DNA from: a bacterium
Lineage (GTDB): Bacteria > UBA8248 > JACPRG01 > G963555815
Assembly: GCA_965218795.1 (NCBI GenBank)
Contig: OZ244653.1
Coordinates: forward strand, 3,712,001 to 3,776,000
Length of the DNA: 64,000 bases
Reading direction: 5' to 3'
Position 1 is the stretch's first letter. Every line of letters starts with the position of its first letter. Shown here piece after piece: positions 8,612 to 50,718 of the stretch. The notes under the pieces were generated by a model. The model did not search any database. It was not told the DNA's origin and was given only the letters and a program-made list of their open reading frames with translations. The position numbers and the translations under genes were made by a program.

Positions 8612-10975
8612 ATGAGCGGTGTCGCTGCCGAGAAAGAATTGAAGTGGGTCGGCAAGAATCTGGACCGCGAGGATGGGGCTGACAAGGCGACGGGCATGGG
8701 CGTTTTCGTGACGGACATGCAAATGCCCAACATGCTGACGGCCAAGTTTCACCGCAGCAAGCTGGCCCACGCCCGGATTCGAAACGTGGACGTTTCCAAG
8801 GCCCTGAAGGTTCCGGGCGTGAAGGCGGTCCTCACGTCGGAGGATTGCCCCAAGGATGAGAACGGAAACCTCTACGGATTCGGGGCCTACATGTTCGATT
8901 ATACCATCCTGGCCCACAAGAAGGTCCGGTTCGTATCAGAGCCCATTGCGGTGGTCGCGGCGACCCACGAGGACGCGGCCGAGGAAGGGGTGGACCTCAT
9001 CGAGGTCGAATACGAGGAGATGCCGCCTGTCTTCGACCCCCTGGAGGCCATGGAAGACGGCGCCCCCATCATCCATGAGAACCTCGAACAGTACCCGGTC
9101 GTCCCCGGCTTCACGCCGGTGCGGTTCGGAAACGTGGCGTGCCAGCTCCGGTTCGCCATGGGGGATGTGGAGAAGGGTCTGAAGGAAGCCGACCTCGTCT
9201 TCGAGGACGAATACAGCACCGTGACCAACCACCAGTCCTACATGGAGCCCCATGCCGCCATCGCGCAGGTAGACGCCAAAGGGAGGGTGACGGTCTGGAC
9301 GAGTACGCAAACGGTGGCCGAGGTGCGCCGCGAATTGGGGGACACCCTGAAAATTCCCGCCAGCCAGATCCGAGTCGTTGCGCCGTACATCGGCGGAGGG
9401 TTCGGGGGGAAGCTCGACATCCGCGTCGAGCCCCACGCCATTCTGCTCGCGCAGATGACCCGGCGGCCGGTCAAGATTGTTCTGAGCCGCGAGGAGGAGA
9501 TGAACTCCGGCCACCCGCGCCATCCCTTCATCCTGAAGTACCGGACCGGGATGATGAAGGACGGGCGGATCCATGCCCGGGACATCAAGGTCATCGCCGA
9601 CTCCGGGGCCTATTGCCACCAGGGGATGGGCGTGATGGCCGCATCCAGTATTCACGCGCGGGGTCCTTACAAGGTCCCCCACGTCGTCGTGGACGGAAGT
9701 CTCGTCTATACGAACAAGCTGCCCTTCGGCGGTTACCGCGGCTACGGGACCCCGCAGGTGACCTTCGCGGGCGAGTCCCAGTTGGAGGACATCGCCAGGG
9801 AGTTGGGGATCGACCCGGTCGAGATCCGCATCAAGAACGCCATCGCGGCGGGCGATCGGTATGTGACCGGCCAGCCGGTTACGCATACGGCGATTGAAGA
9901 GACCCTGAAGCGCGCGGCGGAGAGCGCCGGCTGGGACTTGAAAGAAGGGAAGCGGCCCCGGCGCGAGCCGGCCGACCCGAAGAAGAGGTATGGAATCGGG
10001 ATGGGGTGCATGCAGCACGTCGGCGCGGTGTTCGCCTCGAGCGCGCTCATTAAAATGGAAGAGGACGGGGGCATCACCGTGATGGCGGGGGGCACGGAAA
10101 TCGGGGCGGGGCAACGCACGGTCCTGTCCCAGATCGCCGCCGAGGGCCTCAGCATCCCCTATGAGAAGGTGTCCATCGTCCTCTCCGATACGCTCGTCAC
10201 GCCCTACGATTGGTCGACCGACGCCAGCCGAACGACCTACAACACCGGGAACGCCATCCTGCGGGCCTGCAAAGAAGTGAAAGACAGGCTTCTCGAAATC
10301 GGGGGCATGATGCTGGAGGCGGACCCCAAGGACCTCGACGTGGATACCGGGGAGATCTATGTCAAGAGCGCGCCGGACCGACGGGCCTCCTATCACGACG
10401 TCGTCATGTTCGGCCTCTACGTGGACGGGGGCGTGGTTCTGGGCAAAGGCTCCCACTTCGACCCGCCAAAGTTCGATCCGCCGAAGGACGTCAAGCTCGA
10501 GGGAGTCAGTTTTCCTCCCTTCCCGGCCTATATTTTCGGTACGCAGGTCGCCGAGGTCGAAGTCGATACGGAGACGGGGCGCGTGGAGATCATCGCCCTC
10601 CATTCAGCCCATGACGTGGGGAAGGCCATCAGCCCCGCCGGGTGTGAGGGGCAGATCGAGGGCGCGGCGTCCATCGGCCTCGGCTGGCTCCTGTCTGAGG
10701 AAATCGCATTCGAGAACGGCGTTGTGACCAACCCCACGTGGCTCGATTACAAGCTGCCCACAACCCTCGACATGCCGCCGGTTTATCCTCTTCTGGTCGA
10801 GGAGCCGGATGAGACGGGTCCGTTCGGCGCCAAGGGAATCGGCGAGCCGGCGCTGGTTCCCACGCCCGCTGCCGTGGCCAATGCGATTTGCGACGCCATC
10901 GGCGTGCGGATGACGGACATGCCTTTCACGCCCGACCGTGTCCTGGCCGCCATGCGGGAAAGCGGGGCTGATTGA
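8612..10975 (+). CDS. Xanthine dehydrogenase/CoxL-family molybdopterin-binding subunit (no adjacent small or medium subunit)
   Basis: GGGFGGK, YRGYG, HDVGKAI, GQIEG, GPFGAKGIGE. Confidence 0.93.
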   Translation: MSGVAAEKELKWVGKNLDREDGADKATGMGVFVTDMQMPNMLTAKFHRSKLAHARIRNVDVSKALKVPGVKAVLTSEDCPKDENGNLYGFGAYMFDYTILAHKKVRFVSEPIAVVAATHEDAAEEGVDLIEVEYEEMPPVFDPLEAMEDGAPIIHENLEQYPVVPGFTPVRFGNVACQLRFAMGDVEKGLKEADLVFEDEYSTVTNHQSYMEPHAAIAQVDAKGRVTVWTSTQTVAEVRRELGDTLKIPASQIRVVAPYIGGGFGGKLDIRVEPHAILLAQMTRRPVKIVLSREEEMNSGHPRHPFILKYRTGMMKDGRIHARDIKVIADSGAYCHQGMGVMAASSIHARGPYKVPHVVVDGSLVYTNKLPFGGYRGYGTPQVTFAGESQLEDIARELGIDPVEIRIKNAIAAGDRYVTGQPVTHTAIEETLKRAAESAGWDLKEGKRPRREPADPKKRYGIGMGCMQHVGAVFASSALIKMEEDGGITVMAGGTEIGAGQRTVLSQIAAEGLSIPYEKVSIVLSDTLVTPYDWSTDASRTTYNTGNAILRACKEVKDRLLEIGGMMLEADPKDLDVDTGEIYVKSAPDRRASYHDVVMFGLYVDGGVVLGKGSHFDPPKFDPPKDVKLEGVSFPPFPAYIFGTQVAEVEVDTETGRVEIIALHSAHDVGKAISPAGCEGQIEGAASIGLGWLLSEEIAFENGVVTNPTWLDYKLPTTLDMPPVYPLLVEEPDETGPFGAKGIGEPALVPTPAAVANAICDAIGVRMTDMPFTPDRVLAAMRESGAD

Positions 10976-38054: not shown

Positions 38055-38345
38055 CTAGATGGCGCCTTGCTCTTCGAGCTGCCGTTCGTACTGGTCGCGG
38101 GAAAGCGGGCATTTCACGAGATCCTCGAATTCCTGTTTTGCGAGCTTGCACTGTCTCGCCATTGTGCTGACTAGCGCGGAACCGATATCCCTGTGCTTGG
38201 CGCCGTGAGATGTCTTTGTGAATACTTTCGTTTTCTTCCCTTCTTCTTCTGTGAAGTAGATAAAGAAGTTGTGGTTTCCTTTCTCTTTCCGTCGAAACCC
38301 TTTCTTCTCAAGCGCGGCTTCGACGTCACGCCGCTTAAGCGCCAT
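38055..38345 (-). CDS. HicA-like (dsRBD-fold) toxin
   Basis: MALKRRDVEAALEKKGF..KGNHNFF...TSHG...DIG.ALVSTMARQCKL. Confidence 0.65.
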   Translation of the reverse strand: MALKRRDVEAALEKKGFRRKEKGNHNFFIYFTEEEGKKTKVFTKTSHGAKHRDIGSALVSTMARQCKLAKQEFEDLVKCPLSRDQYERQLEEQGAI

Positions 38346-39417
38346 CGCACACGTCTCGAATTCGCTCCCGAAGTTCGTCTCGCATCTGCTGCGCCTGAGG
38401 CGACAAGCGCTGCGGTTGCCCCTGACCGTACTCGGTCCACAGCATCGCCAATGTCTCGTCGAGCGCGTCTTCGAGTTCAGGGCGGGCCTCGGCGGACAGG
38501 GTAACGTCGAAGTCACCCTCAAGGTTGTAGAGATGATCCTCCCGATTGAAGGAGACCTCGAAGCGTAGCGGCGGATCCGCCCGGTAGCGAGTGTTGGAGA
38601 CAGTCAGTTCACGGATTTCGATCGGGCTCTCGTCGACTGCGATGATCTCGTCCACCTCGGCGAGTGAAGTTGGTATTCCTTGATCATCATAGGTCACATC
38701 GCCGTGCACCTGGATCAAATCGCGCGGATGATCGAGCAAAACCGGCTCGAAGTCGTCACCGTAGGTCGCGTCGAGTCCGCGGCCGTTCAGCAGCTTGAGT
38801 TGCAACCGCCGCTCTTCGAAGTGCATGCGGACCAGGGTGCCGGTCACGTAAGCCAGCGTATTGTCACCATTCGCACCGACTAGACTCCTATCGAGTTCAG
38901 TGAAAGAGTGCTCAATCTTGGATCCGTCGAGGAGTTTCCTGTGCTCGCTGTCCTCGATCGAAAACACCAACCCGAATCGTTTCGGCGGCTGGGCCGCCTT
39001 GAACGATTCGAGCAGTGATTTCCGGTAAGCGCCGTCTGGCACCACACGGCGCAGCCGGTCTAGACTTCCTTGGGCTATCGCTTGGGTGACCTCATGAAAC
39101 GCGCGGCTCACCTTCTTGATTTCACCATCGTCGAATAGATCATTCTCCGACGCGGAAAGATCGCCAATCTCGGCCGCCAAGGCATAGCTGCCTTCCTCCG
39201 GCACCTTACACACCAGAGCAAAACGCTTTTCGAGGTCGTGCGAGGGCCGTGCTCGTTGTCTGAACTCGTCGCCCCGATGAAACTTGGCCAACAGGTAGAT
39301 AATCTGTTGCACCTGCCGAAGGGACTCCACGAGCACACGCGCCGGCACCATGTGAGCAGGGCTGCCGACACTTTCGAAATGTAGGCGAATCTTACGCTGG
39401 TTGTCGGGATCGGACAT
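38335..39417 (-). CDS. Hypothetical protein with a possible C-terminal HicB-like domain
   Basis: Long ORF overlapping the HicA-like start; C-terminus LSAEARPELEDALDETLAMLWTEY. Confidence 0.6.
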   Translation of the reverse strand: MSDPDNQRKIRLHFESVGSPAHMVPARVLVESLRQVQQIIYLLAKFHRGDEFRQRARPSHDLEKRFALVCKVPEEGSYALAAEIGDLSASENDLFDDGEIKKVSRAFHEVTQAIAQGSLDRLRRVVPDGAYRKSLLESFKAAQPPKRFGLVFSIEDSEHRKLLDGSKIEHSFTELDRSLVGANGDNTLAYVTGTLVRMHFEERRLQLKLLNGRGLDATYGDDFEPVLLDHPRDLIQVHGDVTYDDQGIPTSLAEVDEIIAVDESPIEIRELTVSNTRYRADPPLRFEVSFNREDHLYNLEGDFDVTLSAEARPELEDALDETLAMLWTEYGQGQPQRLSPQAQQMRDELRERIRDVCDGA

Positions 39418-39552
39418 GGTTCGACCCATTCTTGGGTTGCCCTACCTCACCGTCCGGGTGCGCTGGTTGAGCCCGAACCCCGCGCCGCGGGTCCGTTTCA
39501 ATGGCGAGACGACAGGCAGAGAGAAGGGAAGAAATACTTCCCCCGGCAGGCC

Positions 39553-39636
39553 GCTCCTGTGGGGGAAACGGTAAACGCACCGGCTTTGGAAGCCGGCGGC
39601 CTTCAAGCCTTGCGGGTTCGAGTCCCTCCAAGGGTA
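39553..39636 (+). tRNA. tRNA-like RNA: type II (Leu-like) body with TGG (Pro) anticodon, possibly a pseudo-tRNA
   Basis: D-loop GGTAAACG; anticodon arm CCGGC-TTTGGAA-GCCGG; variable arm GGC-CTTCAA-GCC; T-loop GGTTCGAGTCC; discriminator A. One mismatch each in the acceptor, D and T stems. Confidence 0.65.
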
Positions 39637-40116
39637 GTATGGATTGCCTTACATGGAAAAAAGAATATTGGACTGGCTCGCGGCATGTCAACCTCTTGCC
39701 TTCGCTCCCCTGGCCGTCCGCGCAGTGGTATGGACCCCTGGTGAGGGCTCTCGGGGACAAGCTTCAATCAAGGGGCCGGGATCCATTTCCTGGATTCCCG
39801 CGTGCGCGGGAATGACCGTCTGAGGGCCTGTCCTCGAACGCCGCGCCGCCCATCAAAATCCCCGTCCGTCGATGCACCGCCGTTGCAAGGCCCGTGCATG
39901 CCCCTTGCACGGTGTCGCCGGCCGGCAACCCGTCGATCATTCCTGCCTTGAAGAAGAATCGATGGAACCCCGGCCCAATCGGGATCCCCGCCCTTCAATC
40001 ACTCCCCCCTTGAGGGGGAGTCGGCAAGGCGCGGCCGAGCCGGTGGGGGGAGTGGTCGAAGACGCGCGGTCCACGCCCGCCCGTTTCAGCTTCTTTTTTC
40101 CGGGGATTCTCGAAGC

Positions 40117-41502
40117 CTAGAACTGGCGGACGAAACGCAGCTCGGCCCGGGTGCGCTTGTAGTCGTACAGCTGGGCGTTGGATGCGCGTTCCTCGTTCAC
40201 CACCACGAGCTGCGGGCTGAACCCGAAGACCGTGAAAACGCGGTTGAACACCGAGGCCTGCACGATCCGGGTCCGGTCCTCCCGGGACGAGTCGTCCGTC
40301 GTGAACGGGAACCACCCGCCTTCGTATTGCGTCCAGCGCATCTCGCCGCTGCCGCCCACCGTGAAGCCGTAAGGCAGGGCGATGGAGGCCCCGAGCCGCG
40401 CCCAGCCGGTCTTGTTGCGCCAGGGCTGCGACTCCGTGCGTTCGCGCCCGTAGCCCACCGTGGCGTGGGTCCGGATCGTGGACGTGGCCAGCCAGGCGCC
40501 GCCCAGCGAGGCGGCCAGGCTCGAGCCGTCCAGGTGCTCCCTTTCCTCGTACGTCCGCTCGTGCCAGGAGGCCCGCCCCCGGGCCGTCAGTTTTCGGGTG
40601 AAGCGGTGATTGACCTCGAGGCGGGCGCCGAGCGCAGTGTCGTTGTGTGCATCGTTGTCGACTACACTGTCCTGGATCTTGCCGCCGGTCCAGCGCCGGC
40701 GGGCGCTGCCGAGCAGGCTGAGTTCCGTGGCCGGGCCGGCCCTCCAGCGCGGCCCGGCGTGCAGCGAGACGAACATCTGATCGAATTCGTTGCCCTCGTA
40801 TTCCCGGCGGGACACGTCCGCGCCCAGGCGCAGCCCCAGGCGCTTGCCCAGCGGATGCTGGTATTCGCCGCCGCCCCACAGGATGAGCCCCACCCCCGAG
40901 CTTTCTCCTTCGAACGCGTTGCGGCGGAAGGGCAGGTCGTGGATGTAGATGATCTCCGAGTCCGAGACCGCGCTGATGTTGGTGTCCGGCGCGATCGAGA
41001 AGCCGAAATAAGTGCGCCAGCGCCGGCGCGCCCGCATCGCCGTCAGGAAACGCCGGACATTCTTGGCCACCAAGGGCGGCGGCTTCCCCGCCAGCACGCG
41101 CTCGAAATGCTCCCGGGACAGGCCGTCCTCGCGTTTGAAGAAGAACGCCCGGGCCAGCTCCAGGCGCACGCGCACCAGGCCGGGACGGTTGATCAGGATG
41201 GCGCGCAGCGCCGCGATCGCCTCGTCCAGCAGGGTGGTCTTTTCCTTCTCCTTGCCTGCCGGCAGACGCCTGGACGCCTCGATGGCCGACAGGCCGACGA
41301 GAAACAGAACCTCCGTCCTGTCCCGATGGCCCTTGGCCAGCGGGCGCAGGATGCGCAGCGCCTCGATATGGCGGCGTTGTTTCATCAGGGCCCGCGCGTT
41401 TTCTACCCGGGGGTCTTTGGAAACATGAGAGCGGGCCTGGGCGTCCGGGGCCGGGACGTGGAAGAGGAGGATGAGCACGAAGGCGAGGATCGATTTTCTC
41501 AT
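40117..41502 (-). CDS. Surface lipoprotein assembly modulator (Slam/DUF560, type 11 secretion) outer-membrane protein
   Basis: Signal peptide; TPR-like RVRLELARAFF; APDTNI; C-terminal barrel ending SNAQLYDYKRTRAELRFVRQF. Confidence 0.85.
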   Translation of the reverse strand: MRKSILAFVLILLFHVPAPDAQARSHVSKDPRVENARALMKQRRHIEALRILRPLAKGHRDRTEVLFLVGLSAIEASRRLPAGKEKEKTTLLDEAIAALRAILINRPGLVRVRLELARAFFFKREDGLSREHFERVLAGKPPPLVAKNVRRFLTAMRARRRWRTYFGFSIAPDTNISAVSDSEIIYIHDLPFRRNAFEGESSGVGLILWGGGEYQHPLGKRLGLRLGADVSRREYEGNEFDQMFVSLHAGPRWRAGPATELSLLGSARRRWTGGKIQDSVVDNDAHNDTALGARLEVNHRFTRKLTARGRASWHERTYEEREHLDGSSLAASLGGAWLATSTIRTHATVGYGRERTESQPWRNKTGWARLGASIALPYGFTVGGSGEMRWTQYEGGWFPFTTDDSSREDRTRIVQASVFNRVFTVFGFSPQLVVVNEERASNAQLYDYKRTRAELRFVRQF

Positions 41503-49935: not shown

Positions 49936-50718
49936 GGTAGTGTCTCAGTTTGAATCCCGCTTATCAATCAGCTCCACGATCCACCTCACATCATGAAGCG
50001 TGTCGGTGACGCCGGCCGCCATCGCGGGGGACATTCTCAGCGTCTTGTGAATCCGGCGGAAGTTGTAATGCACGAAGTACAGGCTCAGCGTGTGCAGGTG
50101 ATTTTCCAGCTTCTTGCTGAACGCATTGGTCAACCGGGTGAACCGTCTCATGCCCATCCGCATCGAGAGGTTCCGGCGTTCGATGTGTGACGTGCTGATC
50201 CGGTCAACGTCGGGATCCCCCTGAACGCGGAACTTGCGCGTCCCGATGCAGGCGTCAGTCCCATCGCCGTATAGTTTCACCAACTGGGCAAATCCACGTC
50301 GCTTCCGAAAGCCCCCTCAACGGCTTCCAGGTACGCCTTGTGCCCGTCCGTGGTCAATTGTACCCTGTTGGCTAATCTCCCCCTCAGATTGTTCATGAAC
50401 TCCCTGGCGGTCCGCGCCGAGCGATCCCCCACCTCATAGGCTCAGGATCATCTTGCTGTCGCTGTCGAGGGCGCTCCAGGTCCAAACGTCTCCAGCGCCT
50501 TCAGGAGCGGATTTGGCACTGGGGACGTTCTTGGCCTTTGCGTAGCAGAAAGACCAGATCTCATCGCACTGTACGCGCTGAGCCTTCACTTCCCGCACGG
50601 TCTCGTCGTGATAAGCCGCACACGCCTTGCCAGCGTCAACCAATAGCTTTGTCACGGTGTTGATGGAGACGCCCACCGTGCGACTGATAGAGCGCATGAA
50701 TCCCAATCTAGCAAGCAT
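49936..50718 (-). mobile_element. IS1-family (ISMhu11-like) transposase pseudogene
   Basis: VQCDEIWSF, GDVWTW, TTDGHKAY, ISTSHIERRNLSMRMGMRRFTRLTNAFSKK, YNF.RIHKTLR.SPAMAAG. Frameshifts near 50440 and 50290. Terminal GGTAGTGTCTCAGTTTGAA. Confidence 0.88.

Follow-up and report, generated by a model that had tools for sequence, protein, structure and literature searches.

To our knowledge, transfer RNAs (tRNAs) that deliberately misread the code in nature are confined to a few cases, namely the serine-type allo-tRNAs, the proline-type tRNAs of Streptomyces and the CUG yeasts. The type found in Streptomyces and Kitasatospora (tRNA-ProX with ProRSx), which we take to join a proline body to alanine, threonine or asparagine anticodons and to depend on a dedicated isoform of prolyl-tRNA synthetase (ProRS), has presumably been proposed as a means of deliberate mistranslation. 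Here we describe a tRNA gene from a 64-kb window (the whole stretch of bacterial DNA analyzed, positions 3,712,001-3,776,000 of the single 5.17-Mb contig of genome G000) in which a leucine-type class-II body carries the proline anticodon UGG, together with the large family to which this gene belongs. Like the dual-identity tRNAs of Streptomyces and Kitasatospora, it is naturally encoded and its body and anticodon specify different amino acids, but the polarity is opposite, with a leucine body and a proline anticodon, and G000 has no second ProRS.

A comparison with the allo-tRNAs (Mukai et al. 2017, Nucleic Acids Res 45:2776, PMC5389517), which insert a wrong amino acid, serine, in E. coli and are toxic when induced, shows both common design and clear differences. 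The family resembles the allo-tRNAs described there in consisting of natural bacterial class-II tRNAs with the body of an anticodon-blind synthetase and mismatched sense or stop anticodons, and likewise in being found for the most part among soil bacteria and metagenomes, with transposon-related genes and toxin-antitoxin systems in the vicinity. Allo-tRNAs have 8/4 or 9/3 acceptor/T stems, a Sec-like D arm and serine identity with G73, whereas the present family has 7/5 stems, a Leu-type D arm and A73. With canonical tRNA-Leu as described in PMC9976931 it shares the long variable arm, the 3-bp D stem, the 13.22 mismatch, A14, A15:U48, G18G19, A20a and A73; unlike canonical tRNA-Leu, it carries a UGG anticodon, leaves CCA unencoded in 99 of 113 copies, and is accessory and linked to mobile DNA rather than core. 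IS1595 elements with passenger genes have been called “transporter IS” (insertion sequences; PMC3129680, citing Siguier et al. 2009), and the elements reported below resemble those described there in having a DDE transposase with a zinc ribbon and terminal inverted repeats that enclose passenger DNA. They differ from known transporter IS in that the passenger is a mismatched tRNA gene, and the window copy is without a transposase. The section of a 2024 review (PMC11415595) on other bacterial mistranslating tRNAs lists no case of a leucine body with a proline anticodon, and UGG, tRNALeu and LeuRS do not occur as words in the main text of PMC5389517. Our literature search found neither such a tRNA nor a tRNA carried by IS1595, with the limit that the irregular-tRNA lists in the supplements of PMC5389517 could hold members.

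ARAGORN calls a single tRNA in the window, at 39553-39636 on the forward strand (84 nt, tgg at position 35), and RF00005 is the only Rfam family there to reach its gathering score (35.9 bits against 29, model positions 1-71 fully covered; E-value 7.7e-4 over the whole window and 4.8e-6 over 401 nt). The gene and its immediate parts are:

39553..39636, forward strand: leucine-type class-II tRNA gene with anticodon UGG, probably an orphan and partly degenerate (ARAGORN, Rfam RF00005, model R1)
39587..39589, forward strand: anticodon TGG, which reads CCN (proline), within the loop TTTGGAA, with U33 and A37 (ARAGORN and parse)
39479..39552, forward strand: about 75 nt upstream of the tRNA that are common to the G036 copy, with two short hairpin-like stretches (BLASTN, alignment A2)

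The original prediction had described an 84-nt cloverleaf with a long variable arm, A73 and TGG at 39587-39589, and ARAGORN, RF00005 and a base-by-base parse all agree with it. It had also listed the mismatches C5.A68, G11.G24 and C50.U64 and the absence of CCA, each of which is present in the drawn cloverleaf and in the parse. The acceptor stem, GCTCCTG/CAAGGGT, contains the C5.A68 mismatch together with G1.U72 and U3.G70; G11.G24 lies in the 3-bp D stem and C50.U64 in the T stem. The discriminator base is A73 (A at 39636), the variable arm is 15 nt long, and the 3' flank reads GTATGG, with CCA not encoded. Folded by itself at minimum free energy, the sequence does not form a cloverleaf (z -1.04, with 28 of 200 shuffles folding as well). 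Because single-sequence thermodynamics is uninformative here, the fold is supported instead by the covariance model and by comparative evidence.

Scanning with a pattern that combines a D arm of the Leu type with the loop YTTGGR and an extended variable region revealed that this gene has many relatives. After deduplication the family comprises at least 113 distinct sequences (101 metagenomic, seven viral, two from the genome_contigs collection, two from genomes of the class, and the window copy), and all family counts given here are lower bounds. The sources are metagenomes from soil, peat and sediment, contigs of viral or proviral origin, and scattered genomes. Among the matches listed from metagenome contigs (at least 120), 114 are tRNA(tgg), one is ambiguous and five are without a call; in viral contigs the pattern matched 13 loci, with a long-arm tRNA(tgg) called by ARAGORN in seven. 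Genome_contigs were searched with another, less suitable pattern, and the matches listed (again at least 120) include three members, two of them in Terriglobia metagenome-assembled genomes, and are otherwise mostly Ser-GGA tRNAs (51) and D-loop-to-T-arm matches. ARAGORN labels the family genes tRNA-Pro because the tool names tRNAs by their anticodon, a recurrent annotation error for leucine-type UGG genes that this analysis flags.

Base pairing is conserved throughout the family. In alignment A3, which holds all 113 sequences, 97.4% of 2711 stem cells pair, compared with 66.1% in shuffles (none of 500 as high) and 38-45% when the partners are slid. Cells changed on both sides number 782 against 228 expected, and double changes are found at 19 of 24 pairs, including the variable-arm helix. 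Paired cells make up 98.1% in the 7-bp acceptor stem and 99.3% in the 5-bp T stem, and the D stem has 3 bp. No mismatch occurs across the 17 acceptor, anticodon and T pairs in 97 of the sequences, and the window copy is among the four with two or more. Judged by this alignment, the structure of the family is under selection. Position 37 is A in 85 members, the window copy among them, and G in the remaining 28.

Close homologues were sought in 61 genomes (G000 and 60 relatives). They were found in G036 (80% identity) and G050 (79%), both from another family of the same class. Of the 51 genomes in the class, three (G000, G036 and G050) are carriers. ARAGORN calls both homologues as long-arm tRNA(tgg), 90 nt in G036 and 87 nt in G050, and when they are aligned with the window copy, compensatory changes are seen in the stems of the acceptor, the D arm and the anticodon arm. 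The stems of the G050 copy are perfect; the G036 copy shares C5.A68 and has G73. The original prediction had taken homologues carrying TAG as the mark of a simple pseudogene, an objection that fails because the homologues carry TGG: G036, G050 and 110 other distinct sequences all have this anticodon, mostly on perfect stems. Class-wide pattern matches in G005, G007, G031 and G019 have the loop register TTGGAAA and were judged by eye to be of the Ser-GGA type. BLASTN homology between the window and G036 covers 39526-39633; in alignment A2, conserved blocks reach as far back as about 39479, and homology ends at the 3' end of the tRNA. The shared upstream flank of about 75 nt, together with C5.A68, shows that the window and G036 copies descend from one ancestral unit and did not arise by local duplication, and this stretch may represent a leader or the remnant of a mobile unit. 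The G036 copy (L007, 9955-10040, reverse strand) sits between a CRISPR array and cas1/cas9, at the expected array leader (region L007:9470-14686). This array has at least four repeats with a core of about 36 nt by eye (49-nt copies according to the tool) at 66-nt spacing, and ends near 9716.

The tRNA complement of G000 helps to place the gene. ARAGORN finds 57 genes on the contig, including canonical 77-nt tRNA-Pro genes with UGG, CGG and GGG anticodons and, besides these, five leucine tRNAs that all encode CCA. The canonical G000 tRNAs compared (Leu, Ser, Tyr, Pro, Sec) encode CCA, unlike the window copy. The window tRNA aligns with the resident leucine tRNAs across the D and T arms, and its closest resident by BLAST is Leu-TAA (UAA), at 73%; on these alignments, it is no recent copy of any resident leucine tRNA. 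The original prediction had placed it one change from Leu-TAG. The two anticodons do differ at a single base, but an origin from the resident Leu-TAG does not hold up, as the nearest resident is Leu-TAA and the window tRNA has A37, like Leu-UAA and Leu-CAA, where Leu-UAG has G37. Canonical 77-nt tRNA-Pro is kept in all three carriers, G000, G036 and G050, and the leucine-type UGG tRNA is thus additional to the resident tRNA-Pro and no replacement for it. The ProRS of G000 is of the bacterial type (TIGR00409, 693.7 bits; TIGR00408 under its cut-off), and no archaeal-type or second enzyme was found in this genome. Outside the window, ARAGORN also makes some odd, long, poor-stem calls in G000, such as 2822551-2822636 and 4616140-4616230 (Lys-ttt of 86 nt and Arg of 91 nt).

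Which synthetase would charge such a tRNA can be approached through known identity elements. For E. coli leucyl-tRNA synthetase (LeuRS), A15-U48, G18G19 and A20a are described as essential, the anticodon is no identity element, the sequence of the variable arm is irrelevant and G73 is an antideterminant; C2-G71 acts as an antideterminant against seryl-tRNA synthetase, and the determinants of bacterial ProRS are A73, G72, G15:C48, G35, G36 and G37 (PMC9976931). The window tRNA has the LeuRS tertiary elements A15:U48, G18G19 and A20a as well as A73, and its anticodon is TGG rather than the NAG or NAA of a leucine tRNA. The proline determinants G35, G36 and A73 are all present in it, and it is without other ProRS features, having G1.U72, A15:U48, A37 and the 15-nt variable arm. 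Across the family, the search pattern itself dictates A14, A15 and the general shape of the D stem, and these were excluded as evidence. Leucine determinants that the pattern does not impose are nearly universal: A73 and U48 (opposite A15) each occur in 109 of 113 members, G18G19 in all 113 and A20a in 111, and C2-G71 is found in 87. Proline features are mostly rare, with G72 in nine members, G37 in 28 and C48 in three, G35 and G36 being present. On the family covariance model R1 the members score 70-94 bits, the canonical leucine tRNAs of the 51 class genomes 78-86 bits and the window copy 73.6 bits. Given that LeuRS is blind to the anticodon and that its determinants are kept, intact members are most likely charged with leucine. 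Insertion of leucine at proline codons, which the original prediction had raised, is accordingly the best-supported inference for the family, with leucine determinants kept and proline ones mostly absent.

The second recurrent property of the family is its association with one type of transposon. Clustering of open reading frames (ORFs) within 2.5 kb of the 113 tRNAs identified a single transposase family (PF12762, PF12760) in 48 loci, and its representatives combine an ISXO2-like DDE domain with an IS1595 zinc ribbon. The transposase gene is convergent and downstream of the tRNA in 31 of these loci, with its stop codon 2-100 nt from the tRNA 3' end in 23; it is downstream on the same strand in six and upstream in 11. 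One such element is found in G050 (L008, tRNA at 9962-10047), where a 31-nt inverted repeat, 81% complementary, encloses transposase and tRNA in a unit of 1.9 kb. The terminal motif GGCGAT...ACTTGACAAACCCA of this repeat recurs at the transposase-proximal end of several elements, and inverted pairs of it surround tRNA and transposase in L008 (1.9 kb), L216 (2.8 kb) and L183 (3.4 kb). Pairs of diverged loci (67-86% identical) have common blocks that begin 150-330 nt upstream of the tRNA, take in the transposase gene and end 1040-1100 nt downstream, and the flanks beyond these blocks are unrelated on both sides. The closest transposase pairs do have related tRNAs, the two co-varying. A search of the plasmid collection with the G050 element returned short transposase matches only. 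Recoding of the transposase itself, with proline codons standing for leucine, was considered and rejected: among 31 tRNA-linked copies there is no leucine-major column with proline and none vice versa, and a second comparison, against 64 relatives without a nearby tRNA, gave no Pro/Leu-switched column. An ARAGORN call near an IS1595 copy in G000 (4234820-4234910) apparently lies inside an ORF, by eye, and looks spurious.

When viral contigs were searched with A4, an alignment built from 21 transposases, related elements were seen to carry other anticodons on the same body. Among the best 80 of 543 relatives, 13 loci contain tRNAs called by ARAGORN, and in ten of these the tRNA is a leucine-type long-arm tRNA with A73. 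Its anticodon is UGG in five, UGC (Ala) in two, GGA (Ser) in one, UUA (ochre) in one, and a doubtful AGG in one. A leucine body that stays the same under varying anticodons is what would be expected if leucine is the amino acid delivered, and is hard to square with charging by ProRS as the purpose of the family. The UUA tRNA (L325:3070-3153, reverse strand) adjoins an IS1595-type transposase and has the same acceptor 5' strand as the window copy, GCTCCTG; a further ARAGORN call on L325, a 76-nt tRNA with anticodon ACT, lies about 450 nt from it. A mismatched class-II tRNA with a different body was seen in viral L144 (4220-4309; same contig as L274:3755-3844), where a 90-nt serine-type long-arm tRNA with the Ala anticodon CGC lies about 1.3 kb from an IS1595-type transposase.

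The stems and the surroundings of the window copy were compared with those of its family. G11.G24 is unique among the 113 sequences, C50.U64 is one of three unpaired at that position and C5.A68 one of four, while G1.U72 occurs in four sequences and U3.G70 in two. A tblastn search with 12 family transposases placed the nearest G000 match about 170 kb from the window tRNA, and the terminal motif was not found within 2.5 kb on either side of it. No sigma-70-like promoter was found on the forward strand upstream, and across the family the sole upstream motif at a fixed distance was a T at -1, in 58%. With its five weak or broken pairs, and lacking both CCA and a transposase, the window copy has the look of a relic under relaxed selection, and this orphan gene is probably decaying. 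The original prediction had offered, as its fallback, a decayed tRNA from a mobile element, and both parts of this description fit, the family being linked to IS1595 and the window copy having five weak or broken pairs and no transposase.

Two neighbouring genes are given as context, neither being shown to be part of the tRNA locus:

38335..39429, reverse strand: conserved hypothetical gene of 364 amino acids, divergent from the tRNA (no Pfam family)
38055..38340, reverse strand: small HicA-like ORF downstream of the 364-amino-acid gene (Pfam HicA_toxin)

The HicA-like ORF matches HicA_toxin at an E-value of 6.2e-5 and 23.5 bits, under the curated cut-off of 27. The 364-amino-acid gene has 38 relatives of similar length; within the class it is present in one of the 51 genomes, G000 itself, and is absent from G036 and G050. 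With family neighbours varied as well, the earlier suggestion of a role tied to this HicA-like pair is not upheld. A surface-lipoprotein-assembly-modifier (Slam-type) outer-membrane gene at 40117-41502 on the reverse strand has 93% DNA identity to a gene in G004, a genome of another genus, with unmatched flanks, and may have been recently transferred. G004 lacks the tRNA segment; with the 364-amino-acid gene also confined to G000 within the class, the tRNA sits in accessory DNA. Short repeats at 39788-39816 and 39997-40038 occur in very high copy, with summed contig depth in the thousands in DNA runs; they have many near-identical copies in G036, G004 and G006 and translate as the pseudo-peptide “FLDSR.RGND” of spurious ORFs. 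About 10 kb from the tRNA, at 49945-50718 on the reverse strand, a pair of adjoining ORFs borders a DUF7689 gene; one ORF, the first, matches the IS1 transposase family PF03400 weakly (23 bits, under cut-off) and the second is without a Pfam match. The pair may be an IS1 remnant and further marks the region as accessory and rich in elements. In public sequencing data, runs X3 and X6 cover the locus at an even depth of about 5, which is DNA-like, and run X9, presumably RNA, gave no coverage of it. A metatranscriptome labelled sponge metagenome (X1) contains a 161-nt contig that matches 38480-38638, the junction of the 364-amino-acid and HicA-like genes, with zero differences.

Taken together, we consider it probable that the family consists of leucine-charged missense tRNAs travelling as transposon cargo, and that the window copy is a decaying relic of one. 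The proposal concerns a class-II tRNA with a bacterial leucine body and the proline anticodon UGG, which belongs to a large, structurally conserved family and lies, in many loci, inside or beside what appear to be IS1595-family transporter insertion sequences, with sister elements putting Ser (GGA), Ala (UGC) and ochre (UUA) anticodons on the same leucine-type body. Intact members would most likely be charged by the anticodon-blind LeuRS. As missense tRNAs spread by transposons, they would then compete with the resident tRNA-Pro for CCN codons and put leucine in the place of proline. The window copy would have lost, or never had, the transposase and terminal repeats, and is most likely left with little or no activity. 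Several observations weigh against this account. The leucine-like look is partly built in, since the pattern demands a Leu-like D arm and UGG, and only the non-imposed features count. Many contigs are short, and among the 44 loci whose downstream flank extends for 1300 nt or more, a downstream transposase is present in 22 and absent from 22; paired terminal motifs were found in only three loci, and a general inverted-repeat search exceeded shuffles in one of 17. Identities of tRNA and transposase are uncorrelated overall (rho -0.05, a value equalled or exceeded in 1476 of 2000 permutations), and one Terriglobia group shares a block made up of an NYN-domain gene and the tRNA that ends 2-48 nt past the tRNA. 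Sigma-70 promoters are not enriched upstream across the family (best scores average 5.5 over -90 to -1 and 6.0 over a control segment). Coverage by the RNA run X1 is confined to 38480-38638 and a repeat and does not include the tRNA, which has no bearing on its transcription either way, and the window copy, at its score on the family model, may keep some function. In the Terriglobia-type loci L057, L220, L024, L193, L160 and L156, the gene divergent from and upstream of the tRNA(UGG) encodes a 240-amino-acid NYN-domain (RNase-like) protein, and in L193 an IS1595 transposase gene terminates 2 nt past the tRNA.

That these are true proline tRNAs on an unusual scaffold, which ProRS charges through G35, G36 and A73 so that the element supplies an extra or nuclease-resistant tRNA-Pro(UGG), seems unlikely to us. 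All three bases are bacterial proline determinants as listed in PMC9976931 and all are present; C1-G72 is found in nine members and G37 in 28, and three metagenomic members (L204, L206 and L238) carry, on a leucine-type core, the acceptor CGGGGCG/CGCCCCG of the canonical tRNA-Pro of G000, which suggests that in some lineages ProRS, either alone or alongside LeuRS, may recognise them. Nevertheless, the strong determinant G72 is absent from 104 of the 113 sequences, the window copy having U72, the tertiary pair is the leucine-type A15:U48 in 109 rather than G15:C48, and the sole ProRS of G000 is bacterial in type. Sister elements that keep the body under Ser, Ala and stop anticodons fit an anticodon-blind synthetase and not ProRS. 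We give equally little weight to a non-translational role, in which a tRNA-like RNA would act as a processing or termination signal, as a source of antisense into the transposase 3' end, or as a decoy or substrate of an RNase toxin. Such a role would fit the 23 loci in which the tRNA ends so close to a convergent transposase stop codon, the HicA-like ORF at the window, an NYN-domain cluster in seven loci (confirmed for two representatives), and Fic/Doc, Panacea and AbiEi, each in single loci; for allo-tRNAs, too, toxin-antitoxin systems have been reported in the neighbourhood, along with allo-tRNA(UAU) variants that are inactive or toxic (PMC5389517). The neighbours are varied, however, with none kept family-wide, and the pair of 364-amino-acid and HicA-like genes is absent from G036 and G050. 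A mere processing signal would have no need of the aminoacylation determinants, the 7-nt anticodon loop with U33 and the covariation in every arm, the anticodon stem included, all of which are kept.

Least probable by far is the view of the gene as a private pseudogene, in which a resident tRNA-Leu would have been duplicated and the duplicate, with an anticodon mutation that no relative shares, would be decaying. The three mismatches, two wobble pairs and missing CCA, which set the window copy apart from the canonical G000 tRNAs compared, and the single base between TGG and TAG would suit it. It is already contradicted by the presence of TGG on the same body in 112 other distinct sequences from other genomes and samples, by the 73% identity of the nearest resident tRNA, and by the upstream flank and C5.A68 shared with G036.

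Returning to leucine-charged missense tRNAs as transposon cargo, a bolder form of this proposal is possible, though we advance it tentatively: IS1595-type transposons may spread working tRNAs with anticodon-blind bodies as a switch that changes proline to leucine in part of the host proteome, a dosed poison or an addiction module, the window copy being a fossil left by such an invasion of this lineage. tRNA-Pro and the leucine tRNAs for CUN codons have G37 (m1G37 when modified). Members with A37, which form the majority, might therefore also promote +1 frameshifting at CCN codons.

The window copy itself is of modest interest, while the family that it revealed is of high interest. If the proposal is correct, the family would be a leucine-type counterpart of the known misreading tRNAs that reads proline codons, is abundant in environmental DNA and is borne by insertion sequences. 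With at least 113 natural sequences, it would provide a test set for how LeuRS and ProRS partition a tRNA with dual signals, for what the element gains, and for natural Pro-to-Leu substitution. It would also add a new pairing of amino acid and codon and tie mistranslation to transposon biology.

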